Position numbers and translations under genes: made by a program. Shown in pieces: positions 27-6,039 of a stretch of 6,039 nucleotides of DNA. The notes under the pieces were generated by a model. It was not told the DNA's origin, did no database searches, and was given only the letters and a program-made list of their open reading frames with translations. This DNA is from Escherichia phage NC35, in the sequence record NC_007820.1; one strand, 5' to 3'. Numbering within the stretch: position 1 is the stretch's first letter; the number at the start of each line of letters is the position of its first letter.

Positions 27-64
27 AGACTCTTGCTTCAACGAAACGAAGTAGGAGTCTTTTT
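27..64 (+). terminator. Hairpin (about 12 bp stem, 28-39 pairing with 48-59, two G-U pairs, 8-nt loop) followed by TTTTT; possible intrinsic terminator downstream of gene H on the circular genome. Its right arm contains the Shine-Dalgarno of ORF 65..433.
   Basis: Seen in sequence: GACTCTTGCTTC (28-39) is complementary to GAAGTAGGAGTC (48-59), followed by a T-run at 60-64. By analogy, phiX174 has a terminator after H. Stability not computed. Confidence 0.4.
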
Positions 65-729: not shown

Positions 730-2214
730 ATGGCTACTGAAGTTTTCTCTGATGTTGTTAAGACCGTCTGGTCCCACGCTACGGCTAAGCATGCCCATCT
801 TCGTATGGCTGTTCAGGTTGATAACCGCAGTCGCCTTCTTTCTGACCTTGTTTATCAGTTGGAAAAACGCCTTTCTGAAGAGACTCATTTAGATGATGAG
901 ACTCTTGCTGTTTATGAATCTCAGACCGCTCTTCTGGAAGACCATATGGCTCTGGTTCGGAAGTGTGCTGCCCAACTTGATAATAGTAACACTATAGACC
1001 ACCGTACCCCTTTGGATGCCGAATGTGTTTTCCTGTTTGAAATGATTTGCCCAGGTGTTCGCTACGGTAAAACGTTGAATTCTCTTTGGTCTAAGTATGT
1101 TGCTCAATGGCCTGAGAAGTTAATTCGTCAAGAGTTAGACATGGTTAAGCCTTTATCCTTTAAGGATGAGGTTGCTAAGTACATGGAGAAGATGCAGGAA
1201 AAAACACGTAAAAATCGCATGACTCAAAAAGTAATTAATGATATGCGTATTGCTCACCAAAAGGGCTGGTTTTTCGTATTTGATACGTTGACACTTGCTG
1301 ATGACCGTTTGCAGGCATTTAATGAAAACCCCAATGCTCTTCGTGATTATTTCAGGACTGTTGGTCGAGCTGTTCTGCGCGCTGAAGGTCGTTCGGTTAA
1401 GGATTCCTACAACGACTGCTATCGCTATCTTTGTGTGCCGGAGTTTGGAGGTCAGCACGGTCGTCTTCATTGGCACGTTGTGCATATGGTGCGGACTCTT
1501 CCTTTGGGAAGTCACGACCCTAATTTCGGTCGCAAGGTACGTAATTATCGCCAGATTAACTCGTTCCGTGGCATGTGGCCTTATGGCTTCACGCAACCGA
1601 TAGCTGTACGCTATCAACATGATGCTTATTCTCGCAAAGGTTGGTTGTGGCCTGTTGACAAATCAGGTAAAGCAATGCAGAGTAAGCCCTATCAGGCGGT
1701 CGCATGGTATGTGACCAAGTATGTAGCCAAGCAATCTGACCAGCGTCAGAAAGCTATTACTGAGAGACAAAAAAAATGCAAGAATCCACTTATGGCAATC
1801 TGTCTGAAAAAGGAATTCAGAGTTCGCAGCAGCCGGAAGCTCGGAATGGAGTTACCTTCGATGGCGCATCTCAGCAACAAAGTGCTTCTGGAACTGAGCC
1901 GAATCAGCTTCGATTCCAGTCCTCTGTATCAGATAGTGAAAGAGAACGCCAAAAAGCAATTGACCTTGAACATCGGCGCACTGCCTTTGCACGTCATTTT
2001 GGATGTGCGCCCGGAAGTGAGAAGTATGTTGAAAAATATCCGTCGTTTGATGAAAAAGACACCCGAGTTCAATTGGCAGAGTTCTATCGCTTCAATGACG
2101 GTCACCTTAAAAAATGGGGATATTTCTGATGAAGCACGTCAATACATTATTGATGCAGGAATTACGCCTTTTGATTTGCGAGCTAAAGCGACTCAAACTT
2201 TCGGCGGTAAGTGA
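730..2214 (+). CDS. A: Replication initiation protein A (rolling-circle HUH endonuclease), 494 aa.
   Basis: Clear similarity to phiX174 protein A across the conserved core (FVFDTLTLADDRL, NPNALRDYFR, GRLHWHVVH HUH-type motif, YVTKYVAK two-tyrosine active-site motif, C-terminal DISDE...AGIT...GGK). GAGGA (716-720) precedes ATG 730. An in-frame stop at 697-699 rules out a longer N-terminus. Confidence 0.95.
   Translation: MATEVFSDVVKTVWSHATAKHAHLRMAVQVDNRSRLLSDLVYQLEKRLSEETHLDDETLAVYESQTALLEDHMALVRKCAAQLDNSNTIDHRTPLDAECVFLFEMICPGVRYGKTLNSLWSKYVAQWPEKLIRQELDMVKPLSFKDEVAKYMEKMQEKTRKNRMTQKVINDMRIAHQKGWFFVFDTLTLADDRLQAFNENPNALRDYFRTVGRAVLRAEGRSVKDSYNDCYRYLCVPEFGGQHGRLHWHVVHMVRTLPLGSHDPNFGRKVRNYRQINSFRGMWPYGFTQPIAVRYQHDAYSRKGWLWPVDKSGKAMQSKPYQAVAWYVTKYVAKQSDQRQKAITERQKKCKNPLMAICLKKEFRVRSSRKLGMELPSMAHLSNKVLLELSRISFDSSPLYQIVKENAKKQLTLNIGALPLHVILDVRPEVRSMLKNIRRLMKKTPEFNWQSSIASMTVTLKNGDISDEARQYIIDAGITPFDLRAKATQTFGGK
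973..1002 (+). other. Viral (+) strand origin of rolling-circle replication, a 30-nt conserved element inside gene A; predicted nick between G979 and A980.
   Basis: CAACTTGATAATAGTAACACTATAGACCAC matches the phiX174 origin 30-mer (CAACTTG/ATATTAATAACACTATAGACCAC, recalled from memory) at 27 of 30 positions, in the equivalent place within A (encoding ...LDNSNTIDHR...). Confidence 0.85.
1219..2214 (+). CDS. A*: A* protein, an in-frame internal restart of gene A (332 aa), inferred by homology to phiX174.
   Basis: Internal ATG at 1219 corresponds to the phiX174 A* initiator position just upstream of the conserved HADGW/HQKGW segment. No strong Shine-Dalgarno seen; call rests on synteny only. Confidence 0.45.
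   Translation: MTQKVINDMRIAHQKGWFFVFDTLTLADDRLQAFNENPNALRDYFRTVGRAVLRAEGRSVKDSYNDCYRYLCVPEFGGQHGRLHWHVVHMVRTLPLGSHDPNFGRKVRNYRQINSFRGMWPYGFTQPIAVRYQHDAYSRKGWLWPVDKSGKAMQSKPYQAVAWYVTKYVAKQSDQRQKAITERQKKCKNPLMAICLKKEFRVRSSRKLGMELPSMAHLSNKVLLELSRISFDSSPLYQIVKENAKKQLTLNIGALPLHVILDVRPEVRSMLKNIRRLMKKTPEFNWQSSIASMTVTLKNGDISDEARQYIIDAGITPFDLRAKATQTFGGK
1776..2129 (+). CDS. B: Internal scaffolding protein B, 117 aa, encoded within gene A in a different frame.
   Basis: C-terminal similarity to phiX174 B (AEFYRF...GYF terminus), acidic and Gln-rich N-terminal half, nested in A as in phiX174. Confidence 0.9.
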   Translation: MQESTYGNLSEKGIQSSQQPEARNGVTFDGASQQQSASGTEPNQLRFQSSVSDSERERQKAIDLEHRRTAFARHFGCAPGSEKYVEKYPSFDEKDTRVQLAEFYRFNDGHLKKWGYF

Positions 2215-2290
2215 TCCGGATTTTTCTCAGGAGGAGATTCATGCTGAGCTCGACTCGTTACTACGCAAGTTATCGCGCTACTTTGACTAA
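2129..2290 (+). CDS. K: Protein K, 53 aa (MKHVNTLLMQELRLLICELKRLKLSAVSDPDFSQEEIHAELDSLLRKLSRYFD), overlapping the end of A and the start of C.
   Basis: ATG 2129-2131 overlaps the B stop TGA 2127-2129 (TGATG), the same arrangement as phiX174 B/K. Leu-rich N-terminus resembles phiX174 K (IKQELLLLVYELNRSGLL). Translated by hand; below the ORF-track cut-off. Confidence 0.7.
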   Translation: MKHVNTLLMQELRLLICELKRLKLSAVSDPDFSQEEIHAELDSLLRKLSRYFD

Positions 2291-2447
2291 GCAGCTGATG
2301 TTTTTGACTAAAGCTGACTTTACTGATGATGATGAAAAATGGCTTAATGCCTTTGGTAATTTGCTCCGTCAGTGGTTTCAGATTGAGGATTGGAAAGGTA
2401 ATCATAAAAAATTGCTTGACGATTTAAAAAAACGTGATTACATTTGA
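2241..2447 (+). CDS. C: Protein C (DNA maturation/packaging), 68 aa from the ATG start; an alternative GTG start at 2211 overlaps the A stop.
   Basis: Similarity to phiX174 C (YASYRATLT...DDDEKWLNAFGNLLRQWF versus YFATFRHQLT...DEEKWLNMLGTFVKDWF). Strong AGGAGG (2229-2234) 6 nt upstream of ATG 2241. GTG 2211 (GTGA with the A stop) would mimic the phiX174 ATGA overlap, but lacks a good Shine-Dalgarno. Confidence 0.8.
   Translation: MLSSTRYYASYRATLTKQLMFLTKADFTDDDEKWLNAFGNLLRQWFQIEDWKGNHKKLLDDLKKRDYI
2416..2444 (+). promoter_or_regulatory. Candidate sigma70-type promoter upstream of D (TTGACG -35, 17-nt spacer, TACATT -10).
   Basis: TTGACG at 2416-2421 and TACATT at 2439-2444; location in the 3' end of C is consistent with the phiX174 D promoter position. 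Motif match only. Confidence 0.2.
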
Positions 2448-2490
2448 ACTGTTTCAAGGTTTCTTACCCATTAAATGTTAGGAGAATGTT

Positions 2491-2949
2491 ATGTCTAATC
2501 TTGTTGCTACTGATGTTAACTTTGCTACTTCTGTTGCTGCTCTGAAGATGCTTCAGGCTTCTGCTGTTCTGGATATTACCGAGGAGGATTTTGATTTCCT
2601 GACTGGTGATAAAATTTGGATTGCTACTGACCGCAACCGTGCGCGTCGCTGTGTTGAGGCTTGTGTCTATGGAACGCTGGACTTTGTGGGATACCCTCGC
2701 TTTCCTGCTCCTGTTGAGTTTATTGCTGCCGTCATTGCTTATTATGTTCATCCCGTCAACATTCAGACGGCCTGCCTCATCATGGAAGGCGCTGAGTTTA
2801 CGGAAAACATTGTTAATGGCGTCGAGCGTCCGGTTAAAGCCGCTGAGCTCTTCGCGTACACCTTGCGTGTTAAGGCCGGATTCAAAGAAACGGTTCTGAG
2901 CGCTGAAGAGAATGCTCGCCAGAAACTTCGTGCAAGTGGAGTAATGTAA
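2491..2949 (+). CDS. D: External scaffolding protein D, 152 aa.
   Basis: Near-identity to phiX174 D over most of its length (for example CVEACVYGTLDFVGYPRFPAPVEFIAAVIAYYVHPVNIQTACLIMEGAEFTEN). AGGAG (2480-2484) 6 nt upstream of the ATG. Confidence 0.96.
   Translation: MSNLVATDVNFATSVAALKMLQASAVLDITEEDFDFLTGDKIWIATDRNRARRCVEACVYGTLDFVGYPRFPAPVEFIAAVIAYYVHPVNIQTACLIMEGAEFTENIVNGVERPVKAAELFAYTLRVKAGFKETVLSAEENARQKLRASGVM
2669..2899 (+). CDS. E: Lysis protein E, 76 aa, encoded within D in the +1 frame.
   Basis: MERWTLWDTLAFLLLLSLLLPSLLIMFIPSTF matches the phiX174 E N-terminal transmembrane domain (MVRWTLWDTLAFLLLLSLLLPSLLIMFIPSTF). The start is taken at the Met aligning with phiX174 E, not the upstream ORF-track start at 2606. 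Confidence 0.8.
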   Translation: MERWTLWDTLAFLLLLSLLLPSLLIMFIPSTFRRPASSWKALSLRKTLLMASSVRLKPLSSSRTPCVLRPDSKKRF

Positions 2950-2950
2950 T

Positions 2951-3025
2951 ATGAAGAAAGCTCGTCGTTCTCCTTCTCGTAAGAAAGGTGCCCGTCTCTG
3001 GTATGTAGGCGGTTCTCAATTTTAA
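2951..3025 (+). CDS. J: DNA-binding (packaging) protein J, 24 aa (MKKARRSPSRKKGARLWYVGGSQF).
   Basis: Highly basic peptide whose C-terminus matches phiX174 J (KGARLWYVGG-QF). Starts 1 nt after the D stop (TAATATG). The short length is typical of alpha3-like or G4-like phages, not phiX174 (38 aa). Confidence 0.85.
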   Translation: MKKARRSPSRKKGARLWYVGGSQF

Positions 3026-3030
3026 TTGAT

Positions 3031-3044
3031 GGGGCTTCGGCCCC
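3031..3044 (+). terminator. J-F intergenic hairpin GGGGC(UUCG)GCCCC; likely terminator or mRNA-stabilising stem-loop.
   Basis: Perfect 5-bp G/C stem closing a C(UUCG)G tetraloop, immediately followed by TATAAGGAT (the F Shine-Dalgarno). phiX174 has a J-F intergenic hairpin at the equivalent position. Confidence 0.5.
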
Positions 3045-3059
3045 TATAAGGATTTTTAA

Positions 3060-4343
3060 ATGTCAAATGTACAAACTTCCGCTGAGCGTATCCCTCATGA
3101 CCTGTCTCATCTGGTTTTTGATGCAGGCAAAATTGGTCGTTTAAAAGTTGTTTCTTGGACTCCTGTTGTTGCAGGTGATTCTTTTGAGCTTGATATGATT
3201 GGCGCTATTCGCCTCTCCCCGCTTCGTCGTGGTCTTGCTGTTGACTCTCGCGTTGACTTGTTCACGTTTTATGTTCCTCATCGTCATGTATATGGTGAGC
3301 AGTGGATTGAGTTTATGAAGCAAGGTGTTGATGCTGCTCCTCTGGCTCCTGTTCAGTGCTCTCGTGGTTGGGATAGTGCGCAGTATCTCGCTACTATTCC
3401 GTCTAGTAACTTAAAGGTTCCTAAGTTCCTTCATCAAGGTTACCTGAACATTTATAATAACTATTTTAAAGCTCCGTGGATGGATGACTTGACTTATGCT
3501 AACCCGTCCAATATGAAAGGTGAAGACGTTCGTTTTGGTGTTCGTGCATGTAACTTGAAAACTATTTGGACCGCTCCGCTTCCTCCGGACACTGAAACCT
3601 CTCATTCTATGGAGACTGAGTCTAACTCCATTGACATTATGGGTTTGCAAGCCGCTTATGCTCAATTACATACTGAGCAGGAGCGTGATTACTTCATGAC
3701 TCGTTATCGTGATATTGTTAATGAATTTGGTGGTAGTACTTCTTATGATGCGGATAATCGTCCTTTGCTTGTTATGCATTCTGAGTTCTGGGCCTCAGGC
3801 TATGACGTCGACGGCACCGACCAAAGCTCTCTCGGTCAGTTCTCCGGTCGTGTCCAGCAGACGTTTAAGCATTCAGTACCGCGATTCTTCTGTCCTGAGC
3901 ATGGCACTATGTTCACACTCGTATTGGTCCGCTTCCCGCCGACTCATGAAATGGAGATGCATTACTTAGTTGGTAAAGAAGATTTGACTTATACTGATTT
4001 GGCTTGTGACCCGGCTTTGATGGCTAACTTGCCTCCGCGTGAGGTTAATATGTCTCAGTTCTTCCATTCTGGAAGTGCTAGTGCTAAGTTTAAAATTGCT
4101 GAAGGCCAGTGGTATCGCATGCAGCCTGACCGTGTTGCGCTGCCGTATAACTATCTTGATGGTTTTCCGTTCTATAGTGCGATTCCGTCTGATGATATTA
4201 AGCAGCGTGTTCTGGTTAATACTGATAACTACGATGAGGTTTTCCAGTCTATGCAGCTTGCTCACTGGAATATGCAGACCAAGTTCAACTGCACGATTTA
4301 TCGTAATATGCCGACTACTCGTGATTCTATTATGACCTCTTGA
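3060..4343 (+). CDS. F: Major capsid protein F, 427 aa.
   Basis: Extensive similarity to phiX174 F from MSN-QT-AER-PHDLSH through the C-terminal NLPTTRDSIMTS; same length as phiX174 F. AAGGA (3048-3052) upstream of the ATG. Confidence 0.97.
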   Translation: MSNVQTSAERIPHDLSHLVFDAGKIGRLKVVSWTPVVAGDSFELDMIGAIRLSPLRRGLAVDSRVDLFTFYVPHRHVYGEQWIEFMKQGVDAAPLAPVQCSRGWDSAQYLATIPSSNLKVPKFLHQGYLNIYNNYFKAPWMDDLTYANPSNMKGEDVRFGVRACNLKTIWTAPLPPDTETSHSMETESNSIDIMGLQAAYAQLHTEQERDYFMTRYRDIVNEFGGSTSYDADNRPLLVMHSEFWASGYDVDGTDQSSLGQFSGRVQQTFKHSVPRFFCPEHGTMFTLVLVRFPPTHEMEMHYLVGKEDLTYTDLACDPALMANLPPREVNMSQFFHSGSASAKFKIAEGQWYRMQPDRVALPYNYLDGFPFYSAIPSDDIKQRVLVNTDNYDEVFQSMQLAHWNMQTKFNCTIYRNMPTTRDSIMTS

Positions 4344-4380: not shown

Positions 4381-4926
4381 ATGTTTCAAGTTTATGTTTC
4401 TAAGCATGTTTCTCCGTTCACCTCTATGAATCGTGCTTTTGGTATTACTCCTTCTAGCAATCCGACTGTTGTTAACTCTGGTGAAATTCAGGCTGGTCGT
4501 TCTACTTTTCGTATTGCCTCTTCCATTGGTGCCGCTTCCAATGGTCAAGGTTTTGCGTTTGTTCAAATGATGGACCCTTATTCTCCTGATAATCAGCAGG
4601 TTTTTTCTGTTGCTGCTTCCCTGTCTTTTAGTGTTGATTCGAACTATGTTCCTTGCGTTATTCGTTTTGAGACTGCTAGCACGCAGCCGACTAATATCGA
4701 TGTTTCTACTGCTGACTTTATTCCGCTTGAGTCTTCTGCTCTCTCTGCTCGTGCTCTCAGTGTTCGTGATTGTGTTACCGTTGATGTTAAGCCTCGCATT
4801 GAAGGTAATAACGTTTTCGTTGGTGTGGTTTTCTGTTCTGCTGGAGCTAGTGCTGGTAATGTCACTGGTGCTGTTTCGATGGCTCAGGTTGACCATGAAG
4901 TTACAGCTTTGCAGCCTCTTAAATAA
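4381..4926 (+). CDS. G: Major spike protein G, 181 aa.
   Basis: N-terminus MFQ(V/T)(Y/F)(V/I)S(K/R)H and C-terminus ...TALQPLK match phiX174 G (MFQTFISRH...ICLQPLK), plus the central RFE(T/S) and DCVT(V/I)DV motifs. ATG 4381 with AAGGA (4368-4372) upstream; the ORF-track start at 4348 is a GTG inside the hairpin and is rejected. Confidence 0.95.
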   Translation: MFQVYVSKHVSPFTSMNRAFGITPSSNPTVVNSGEIQAGRSTFRIASSIGAASNGQGFAFVQMMDPYSPDNQQVFSVAASLSFSVDSNYVPCVIRFETASTQPTNIDVSTADFIPLESSALSARALSVRDCVTVDVKPRIEGNNVFVGVVFCSAGASAGNVTGAVSMAQVDHEVTALQPLK

Positions 4927-5061
4927 AAGGCCGCCGCACTCCCGGTTATATGCCTGCCCAGTGTAGGGCGGACCGAGCCGTACGGAGATACCCGATAAAC
5001 TAGGAACGTGGAAGGCGCAAGCCGCCTTCCATCCTGCTAAGCCTAAAGGAGACTTTCAGCT
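4927..5061 (+). other. Structured, GC-rich G-H intergenic region (135 nt) with at least two hairpins and an 8-bp palindrome; candidate complementary (-) strand origin or primase recognition site.
   Basis: Hairpins at about 4954-4971 (CTGCCC / GGGCGG, 6-nt loop) and 5009-5031 (GGAAGGCG / CGCCTTCC, 5-nt loop), a CCGTACGG palindrome at 4978-4985, and CTG at 5034-5036 just 3' of the second hairpin. G4-type phages place a DnaG-dependent origin in an untranslated hairpin-rich region. Confidence 0.4.
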
Positions 5062-6039
5062 ATGTTAGGTGCCGTTGTAGGTGGTATTGCTTCAGCCTTA
5101 GCCGGTGGAGCCGCCTCTAAGTTATTTGGTGGTAAGTCTGCCCCTCAAGCCGCTACAGAGTCCGCTGGCCTATCTAATGGTCAAGGTGTTATTGGTATGG
5201 ACCAAGATGCCGGTATTCAGTCGGCTATTCAGGGTTCAAATGTCCCAAATGGTCAGATTCCCGCCCCCACGCAGACTGGTGGTGTTATGTCTGATGCTAA
5301 AAACATGATTAAGAATGCTGGTAAGGATTTGCTTGATGGTGTCATGACTGCTGGTAGTGACCGAGTCAAACAAGCTTTGGTTGATGGATTGAGTGGTAAT
5401 AATGCAAAGAAACAAGGACAAGCAACCCGTGATTACTTGGCTGCAGCCTTCCCTGAACTCAATGCATGGGAGCGTGCTGGAGCTGGTGCTTCCGGCGCCG
5501 GCTTGGAATCTTCCAGCCAGGACCAACAGAAAGAATTGATGCGAATGCAGTTGGACAACCAGAAAGATATTGCGAAGATGCAGATGCAGAATAATTTGCA
5601 GATTGCAGGTATTCAGTCCGCTACTTCTCGTCAAAATACGAAGGATTCTGTTTATGCACAGAATGAGATGCTTCAGTACAATCAGCGTGAGTCGCAAGCG
5701 CGTGTTGAGTCCATCCTCGCCAACACTGACCTTACGGTTAAACAGGCCACCCATGAAATCATGAGAATGGCCCTTACTCGTGCTCAGGAGACTGGTCAAC
5801 ATTTAACTAACTCTCAGATTATGGCATTGGAGAAAAAGGTTTATGCAGAAATCGGAAAAATTCATCAAGATACTCAAAACTCTCGCTATGGTAGCTCTCA
5901 AGTTACTGCTGCGGCGAAAGATGTTACAAATATGATTTCTGATGCTGTTGGCGGTTTTGCCGACTGGGCTTCCCAGCAATGGAATTCCTTCTTTAAGGAT
6001 GGTAAGTCTAATGGTATTCCTCTTAATACCAGAAAATAA
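5062..6039 (+). CDS. H: DNA pilot (minor spike) protein H, 325 aa.
   Basis: Strong similarity to phiX174 H: N-terminal glycine-rich hydrophobic segment (GGIASALAGGA-SKLFGG), central TRDYLAAAFPELNAWERAGA, and AGIQSATSRQNTKD-VYAQNEML. AAGGAG (5046-5051) upstream; stop TAA at 6037-6039 is the window end. Confidence 0.96.
   Translation: MLGAVVGGIASALAGGAASKLFGGKSAPQAATESAGLSNGQGVIGMDQDAGIQSAIQGSNVPNGQIPAPTQTGGVMSDAKNMIKNAGKDLLDGVMTAGSDRVKQALVDGLSGNNAKKQGQATRDYLAAAFPELNAWERAGAGASGAGLESSSQDQQKELMRMQLDNQKDIAKMQMQNNLQIAGIQSATSRQNTKDSVYAQNEMLQYNQRESQARVESILANTDLTVKQATHEIMRMALTRAQETGQHLTNSQIMALEKKVYAEIGKIHQDTQNSRYGSSQVTAAAKDVTNMISDAVGGFADWASQQWNSFFKDGKSNGIPLNTRK

Follow-up and report, generated by a model that had tools for sequence, protein, structure and literature searches.

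Overlap of a conserved hairpin with the ORF1 ribosome-binding site and a probable promoter after gene H of Escherichia phage NC35

Escherichia phage NC35 is an alpha3-like microvirus of the genus Alphatrevirus. Its complete, circular genome of 6039 nucleotides (nt; record NC_007820.1), which in its whole length is called the window here, is numbered so that base 1 directly follows the stop codon of gene H, the last of the late genes. Within the first 67 bases of the + strand lies a potential hairpin followed by a run of Ts and the start of an open reading frame (ORF), ORF1, whose Shine-Dalgarno sequence (SD) is part of the hairpin. What does such a structure do between the late genes and the next operon? 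A sequence-only reading had proposed a terminator of transcripts coming through gene H, which upon folding would also hide the SD and make ORF1 expression sensitive to the choice between termination and read-through. We find that the hairpin is stable, specific to sense RNA and conserved among related phages, and that a probable promoter overlaps it. Bases 1-67 taken together would form a composite transcription and translation signal, the alpha3-group version of the pA-TH-ribosome-binding site (RBS) element of phiX174, working by the mechanism proposed below; on balance we favour this interpretation, with considerable room for doubt.

The hairpin occupies positions 26-61 and consists of the following parts.

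26-39, + strand: 5' arm of the hairpin, GAGACTCTTGCTTC (RNAfold; pair counts on 18 sequences)
40-47, + strand: loop of 8 nt, AACGAAAC (RNAfold), in which A40/A41 is the predicted transcription start by analogy with phiX174
48-61, + strand: 3' arm of the hairpin, GAAGTAGGAGTCTT (RNAfold; pair counts)
53-57, + strand: AGGAG, the SD of ORF1, wholly within the 3' arm, with the ATG 7 nt downstream
60-64, + strand: TTTTT, the T-run, a terminator-like element with one T fewer than in alpha3 and most relatives

In the RNAfold prediction 26-39 and 48-61 form a stem of 14 pairs, 11 Watson-Crick and three G-U, five of the pairs being G-C. The stem of about 12 base pairs with TTTTT seen before ORF1 in the sequence-only reading is thus confirmed, as 14 pairs or as 12-13 without the two closing A-U and G-U pairs, and its coordinates (AGGAG at 53-57 in the right arm, TTTTT at 60-64, ATG at 65) are right within one base. 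The sense-RNA hairpin has a predicted free energy of -20.1 kcal/mol, compared with a mean of -7.9 +/- 2.2 kcal/mol for dinucleotide shuffles (z = -5.56), and none of 200 shuffles was equally stable; the folding calculation that had been suggested as a check, now run, hence speaks for a stable hairpin (z = -5.6 when rounded). In a sliding scan of 44-nt segments over the whole genome (mean -6.7, standard deviation 3.4 kcal/mol) it ranks second in stability. The single more stable segment, 5464-5507 with -24.4 kcal/mol, lies inside the coding sequence of gene H. The antisense RNA folds with -11.8 kcal/mol only (z = -1.6) and has no T tail. The hairpin structure is specific to sense RNA. T60 and T61 are able to pair with A27 and G26, which leaves only TTT beyond the fully extended stem.

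Relatives for comparison were 14 GenBank genomes and others that were reached by way of the ORF1 protein in IMG/VR, ENA and Logan. Among them the stretch between the H stop codon and the ORF1 ATG has 21 distinct versions, and pairs were counted in an 18-sequence alignment. All 21 versions form the hairpin, with energies between -14.9 and -21.1 kcal/mol. Standard pairs fill 94.8% of the cells of the 18 sequences, a share that drops to 43-59% if the 3' partners are displaced by one to three columns. Six stem pairs are invariant. The lower stem, GACTCTT (28-34) opposite GGAGTCT (54-60), is unchanged throughout, and the GGAG of the SD is the same in all versions. Synonymous divergence in the adjoining ORF1 reaches 0.7-1.0 between NC35 and many relatives. 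As judged from these alignments, the lower stem is far more invariant than neutral evolution would lead one to expect. Compensatory changes are seen at two upper pairs, pair 35/52 occurring as GU, GC, AU and UA and pair 36/51 as CG, GC and GU. In the lineage of L033-L035 and L042-L043 the apex is replaced by a 16-nt longer insert, with the lower stem kept and U-A at 35/52. Runs of four to six uninterrupted Ts stand right after the stem in 15 of the 21 versions.

Between the H stop codon and the loop the same bases can be read as a promoter, with these elements.

6037-6039, + strand: TAA, stop codon of gene H, on the circular genome 3 nt upstream of the -35 box and 26 nt upstream of the base of the hairpin
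4-9, + strand: TTGACA, consensus -35 box of the probable promoter, at the same place as the -35 box of phiX174 pA
10-22, + strand: promoter spacer, TTCCCTGAACCCT, variable in sequence and fixed in length
23-26, + strand: TATG, a TRTG-type extended -10 element, one base before the putative -10 box as in phiX174 pA
28-33, + strand: GACTCT, a putative degenerate -10 box inside the 5' arm, 18 nt from the -35 box

Starting at the stop codon of gene H, the order of elements is TAA, TTG, TTGACA, TTCCCTGAACCCT, TATG, A, GACTCT, TGCTTC, AACGAAAC, GAAGTAGGAGTCTT, TTT and ATG. The distance from stop codon to TTGAC is 3 nt in all 21 versions; the -35 box itself reads TTGACA in 18 and TTGACT in three. The spacer has 13 nt in every version, although 11 of its 13 columns are variable. 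It is followed by TATG in 17 versions, TGTG in three and TATT in one, so that TRTG is found in 20 of 21. GACTCT is invariant and its spacing to the -35 box is 18 nt throughout. Unchanging motifs held at constant distances by stretches of free sequence are what one expects of a promoter, and the pattern points to a probable promoter overlapping the hairpin. Its predicted start, 7 nt past the hexamer, is A40, the first base of the loop, in the same geometry as in phiX174. A promoter scan of NC35 did not call the GACTCT site; the same scan misses the genuine pA of phiX174, too. For this reason, and because the T-run is one base short, we do not count the silence of the promoter and terminator scans against function.

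The counterpart in phiX174 follows the H stop codon as CCGTCAGGA, TTGACA, 17 nt ending in TATG T, TTTCAT, GCCTCCAA, ATC, TTGGAGGC, TTTTTT and the ATG of gene A. In G4 the stop codon is followed by TGC, TTGACT, 18 nt, TAATAT, GCCTCC, CATCAAAC, GGAGGC, TTTTC and, again, the ATG of gene A. In the phiX174 RefSeq record transcription is annotated to begin at 3962, where the 5' arm ends. Logel and Jaschke described the terminator stem as immediately adjoining the end of phiX174 pA, with overlap of pA and TH. According to these authors about 70% of the transcription current is lost across the pA-TH element, which 'resets' transcription before gene A, and all phiX174 terminators are leaky. A 2026 complete-mutagenesis preprint located the sensitive parts of pA at TTGACA (3927-3932), TATG (3945-3948) and TTTCAT (3950-3955). 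There the -35 box was sensitive to mutation, and TATG, the TRTG extension, was essential for fitness and tolerated almost no change. The same preprint reports that the 3' stem of TH overlaps the gene A RBS, with 63% of detrimental mutations in the 3' stem, compared with 13% in the 5' stem.

How the overlap would act on translation can be seen from the computed cost of opening the SD. In NC35, opening the SD after gene H costs 13.8 kcal/mol in read-through RNA and 3.7 kcal/mol in RNA from the predicted start (38-41). The respective values are 10.3 and 1.9 kcal/mol for phiX174, with RNA from the annotated start 3962, and 10.9 and 3.7 kcal/mol for the SD of alpha3 in the second hairpin proximal to gene A, with RNA from the predicted start there. 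Addition of 60 nt of upstream sequence left the NC35 opening cost unchanged, so this stretch contains no competitor of the hairpin. A riboswitch or an attenuator with an antiterminator was considered and rejected: an Rfam search of the entire NC35 genome (E <= 1) matched no RNA family, and no competing pairing was seen. A published study (PMC4824070) saw repression of a terminator only at a distance of a few bases from the stop codon; the 26-nt gap between H stop and stem should let the hairpin form behind the terminating ribosome.

We propose that late transcripts running through gene H would fold the 26-61 hairpin and that some would stop at the U-run in the manner of intrinsic termination, the hairpin staying on the terminated transcripts as a protective 3' end. 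Transcripts that read through would retain the hairpin and bury the SD, with poor translation of ORF1 as the result. A weak sigma-70 promoter (TTGACA at 4-9, 18-nt spacer, TATG-n-GACTCT) would start RNA at about A40. Such RNA, being without the 5' arm, would escape both termination and occlusion and give a translatable message for ORF1 and the two reading frames behind it, ORF2 and ORF3. In NC35, where the promoter proximal to gene A is lost (see below), the same RNAs probably carry gene A as well. We infer the steps of termination and read-through occlusion from the structure and from the phiX174 data and, more weakly, those of promoter start and gene A supply from the conservation of motifs and spacing. 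The reading as terminator and SD occluder was reasonable, agrees with what is known of phiX174 and is partly supported. The element begins 26 nt past the H stop codon, a place at which one would expect late transcripts to be terminated. Occlusion is physically plausible at the computed cost in read-through RNA. The proposed sensitivity of ORF1 to termination versus read-through captures only half the logic, because read-through RNA is blocked twice, by termination and by occlusion. The pA/TH counterpart and the likely overlapping promoter were overlooked there, which probably alters how ORF1 would be expressed: with such a promoter, its expression would probably not need to rely on read-through.

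Concerning gene A, the relatives of NC35 possess a second cassette of the same kind, and it is in NC35 that this cassette is damaged. The features concerned are the following.

696-729, + strand: remnant of the second cassette (alignments with at least 14 relatives)
730-2214, + strand: gene A, replication initiator (ORF list; exact match to NC35 gpA)

In all relatives the cassette before gene A runs TTGACA, 18 nt, TATATT, GCCCTC(ATAG)...(CTAC)GAGGGC, TTTTT, CGC and ATG; in alpha3 its promoter scores 11 of 12 in the promoter scan. It repeats, in the same genomes, the post-H design of promoter, SD-bearing hairpin, T-run and ATG, and differs from it by a near-consensus -10 box, a shorter stem, a different sequence and by serving gene A. 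The NC35 remnant keeps TTGACA (696-701), whereas the junction GATAG (702-706) marks the place from which the -10 box TATATT and the 5' arm GCCCTC have been deleted. NC35 alone lacks these 29-30 nt, which comprise most of the spacer, the -10 box and the 5' arm, and the sequence that remains is TTGACAGATAGTTTTACTACGAGGACTTTTTCGTATG. In L044, the nearest relative for this segment, ATAG flanks the missing block on both sides, which suggests that NC35 lost it by microhomology deletion. An exact search of viral contigs for the NC35 deletion junction found none. A 17-mer scan of metagenome contigs for the junction gave 120 loci, none of them NC35-like, and these were discarded as chance matches.

Because the deletion removed the 5' arm, the SD of gene A (GAGGA, 716-720) is left unpaired in RNA from upstream, with 3.7 kcal/mol as the cost of opening it, versus 10.9 kcal/mol in alpha3 read-through RNA. 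The promoter scan, which misses the genuine phiX174 pA, called nothing else resembling a promoter on the + strand between 1 and 730. The NC35 deposit is that of an isolated coliphage. Since the phage thus exists as an isolate without the proximal promoter, its gene A probably relies on transcripts that begin at the hairpin or run past it, and loss of the second cassette would raise the local importance of the hairpin in this phage. NC35 may be taken as a natural deletion mutant of the second cassette, convenient for gauging the supply of gene A through the first. A G-to-A change after the deletion (GAGGGC to GAGGAC) yields TTGACA-17-GACTTT (696-731), which resembles the putative first-cassette -10 box GACTCT. 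A start 6-7 nt past GACTTT would fall on or beside the gene A ATG (730), and a leaderless gene A RNA is conceivable, as pure speculation. More generally, a promoter placed inside a terminator might in NC35 sort transcripts by their origin, the microhomology deletion having put gene A into the ORF1-ORF2-ORF3 operon with this element as sole gate; we offer this as a tentative idea that could well be wrong. If it were true, late-gene RNA would be stopped and its leak would be untranslatable, RNA born at about base 40 would be immune to both blocks, and NC35 would be a natural case of promoter loss offset by the unmasking of a ribosome site.

Several observations weigh against a composite signal of this kind. 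The covariation goes in the right direction and is modest, with two pairs only and among closely related sequences. The T-run is interrupted in some relatives (TTTGCTT, TTTATC), and it is absent in the L042 lineage (TCTC), which nevertheless keeps hairpin and SD; because of these cases, termination is not the sole selected function. A27 is altered in phage Lilleven, and phiK breaks the TG of TRTG. GACTCT matches TATAAT in only two of six positions, with A in the second and T in the sixth, the two most important -10 positions of sigma-70 promoters. Its invariance is equally explicable by pairing with the arm that holds the SD. A consensus terminator scan of NC35 left the hairpin site unflagged, with only three Ts past the extended stem. 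This silence arises because the stem can take up two of the five Ts and the run is one T short; the same scan flags the equivalent hairpin of alpha3, with six Ts, as the sole terminator-like site in alpha3 bases 1-900. Mapped RNA 5' or 3' ends and transcript data for NC35 or alpha3-like phages were not found in the resources searched. The hairpin itself may contribute little to fitness under particular conditions.

The main alternative is a plain intrinsic terminator and 3'-end stabiliser of gene H transcripts, in which the overlap with the SD is a by-product of compaction, no promoter is present and ORF1-ORF3 are expressed at a low level from read-through. A hairpin with T-run situated 26 nt after the H stop codon fits this description, as does the flagged site of alpha3. 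It likewise accords with the poor match of the putative -10 box, the silent promoter scan and the near-consensus gene A promoter that relatives have further downstream. Such a terminator leaves unexplained, however, why TTGACA stands invariantly 3 nt after the stop codon and why a 13-nt spacer with 11 variable columns keeps its length ahead of TRTG in 20 of 21 versions. With an SD cost of 13.8 kcal/mol, read-through alone would hardly express the strongly constrained ORF1, and NC35, which has no downstream promoter and yet is an isolated coliphage, must express gene A. We therefore consider a plain terminator rather unlikely, if still worth keeping in mind.

The composite signal has also to be set against an element that is mainly a translational operator, keeping ORF1 low by hiding the SD, with termination minor or absent. 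L042 and L043, which keep stem and SD with TCTC in place of a T-run, agree with an operator, and so do the several relatives with interrupted T-runs, the large opening cost and an NC35 T-run too short for the rule of the scan. It is nonetheless improbable: 15 of 21 versions have four to six uninterrupted Ts after the stem, the position after the last late gene matches that of phiX174 TH with its drop in transcription of about 70%, and a permanently closed SD would leave a conserved gene untranslatable. A structure acting in single-stranded DNA (ssDNA) instead of RNA, e.g. as a replication or packaging signal, draws on the fact that microvirus genomes are packaged as + strand ssDNA and that intergenic hairpins can act as DNA, such as the complementary-strand origin between F and G of phiX174. 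As ssDNA the + strand hairpin folds weakly (-7.2 kcal/mol, z = -2.4), and three of its pairs are G-T, of a kind that lends stability to RNA and hardly any to DNA; on these two grounds we rejected it as the principal function. The changes from GU to AU and from GU to GC fit RNA pairing, strong hairpins of the origin type are found elsewhere, in the G-H spacer (4929-5043), and a function at the DNA level is very improbable. The composite of promoter, terminator and ribosome-binding site thus stays the interpretation that we prefer.

The reading frames served by the element form a compact module, which is given here together with the gene upstream.

65-433, + strand: ORF1, 122 amino acids (aa), conserved, with its start covered by the hairpin (sequence comparison)
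437-526, + strand: ORF2, a hydrophobic peptide of 29 aa in the same operon (sequence; a 29-30-aa gene is called in most related contigs)
523-699, + strand: ORF3, 58 aa (a 58-aa gene is called in every related contig)
5062-6039, + strand: gene H (ORF list; exact match to NC35 gpH)

The GTG start of ORF3 overlaps the ORF2 stop codon (GTGA), and the ORF3 stop codon lies within the TTGACA of the second cassette. ORF1 is intact with 122 aa in 13 of 15 GenBank genomes. It is frameshifted (region ~66-435) in the 1992 alpha3 record (X60322/NC_001330; L002), where 47 aa remain, and in St-1 (L005; 94 aa). In re-sequenced alpha3 (DQ085810) ORF1 is intact, and the frameshift of the older alpha3 record is probably a sequencing error. 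In the L033/L042 lineage (region ~1927-2110 of L033, ~4043-4225 of L042) ORF1 has 154 aa; the 34 extra N-terminal residues start with MKP again, and the old start is altered to FKP or SKS. The median pairwise ratio of nonsynonymous to synonymous divergence (dN/dS) of ORF1 is 0.18, and 0.065 in its N-terminal half. Variable columns are distributed over the three codon positions as 43/34/96. The ORF1 family comprises 19 protein clusters, and the longest contig in each does not exceed microvirus genome size (~6.3 kb). By these substitution patterns ORF1 is a real gene under strong purifying selection, confined to alpha3-like microviruses. The annotation of phage Lilleven includes ORF1 as a hypothetical protein, and that of most GenBank records omits it. 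In alpha3 record M25640 the place corresponding to 53-57 is marked as a ribosome-binding site. Searches of Pfam and PHROGs with ORF1, ORF2 and ORF3 gave no matches. The AlphaFold model of ORF1 is confident (predicted local distance difference test score, pLDDT, 90.8; predicted template modelling score, pTM, 0.83), and comparison of this model with PDB and BFVD revealed no significant structural neighbour outside its own family.

A long H-A spacer is typical of the alpha3-like group, and the hairpin is located in it. Whole-genome BLAST found 24 phage records covering at least 80% of NC35, at the top coliphage NC3 with 94% identity. The NC35 genome is a mosaic. Its H-A spacer (1-703) is nearest to alpha3 (93.8%, versus 91.5% for NC3), whereas most of the remainder is nearest to NC3, WA13, NC29 or ID32, with 96-100% identity per 300-nt segment (900-4200 compared). 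Part of gene G (4501-4800) has only 83% identity to any relative compared. The G-H spacer of 135 nt contains two strong hairpins within 4929-5043 (-16.8 and -19.7 kcal/mol). The primase-dependent complementary-strand origin of St-1, phiK and alpha3 was mapped to this intergenic region.

As compared to known systems, the element has its closest likeness in pA-TH-RBS of phiX174 and G4. All are situated at the same place after the H stop codon, with a -35 box within 10 nt of it. In each the 3' arm holds the GGAG of the next gene's SD and the T-run leads into the ATG. NC35 shares with phiX174 the TATG extension and a degenerate, in NC35 putative, -10 box abutting or overlapping the 5' arm. The computed energetic asymmetry is likewise the same, the SD being closed when RNA reads through and open when it starts at the promoter. 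The phiX174 element serves gene A, whereas that of NC35 serves ORF1 (65-433), far ahead of the gene A start at 730. The NC35 stem is longer (14 pairs versus 8 in phiX174) and more stable, and its putative -10 box lies inside the 5' arm and matches less well, the phiX174 box standing just before the 5' arm. In contrast to phiX174, alpha3-like phages normally have a second copy of the cassette, with a near-consensus promoter, before gene A. The function has been demonstrated experimentally in phiX174 only.

With canonical Rho-independent terminators of E. coli the hairpin has in common a stem-loop with G-C pairs near the base, a loop of 8 nt and a U-rich tail in sense orientation after a stop codon; its U-run is short, five residues of which two can pair, and termination would be expected to be leaky. 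The initiation hairpins of the coat genes of MS2 and Qbeta (for Qbeta, PMC2978339) bury the SD likewise. The predicted opening cost in NC35 is far above the range in which expression falls. In contrast to MS2 and Qbeta, relief in NC35 is proposed to come through an alternative start that omits the 5' arm, with no need for opening by a protein or by ribosomes.

By its arrangement, then, the NC35 element is an alpha3-group member of the known phiX174 pA-TH-RBS composite and is not new in kind; the alpha3 records already made a near-identical sequence public, annotation of the RBS included. Its value is modest, as it would refine annotation and regulation models of a well-studied phage family and adds no new mechanism. 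It does offer a concrete model for how tiny genomes could reset transcription after the late genes and still express the next operon. Overlap of promoter, terminator and ribosome site would be a conserved design in all three groups of coliphage microviruses, and in the alpha3 group this design appears duplicated and placed before a conserved accessory module of three genes, which is missing from the annotation of most GenBank records.

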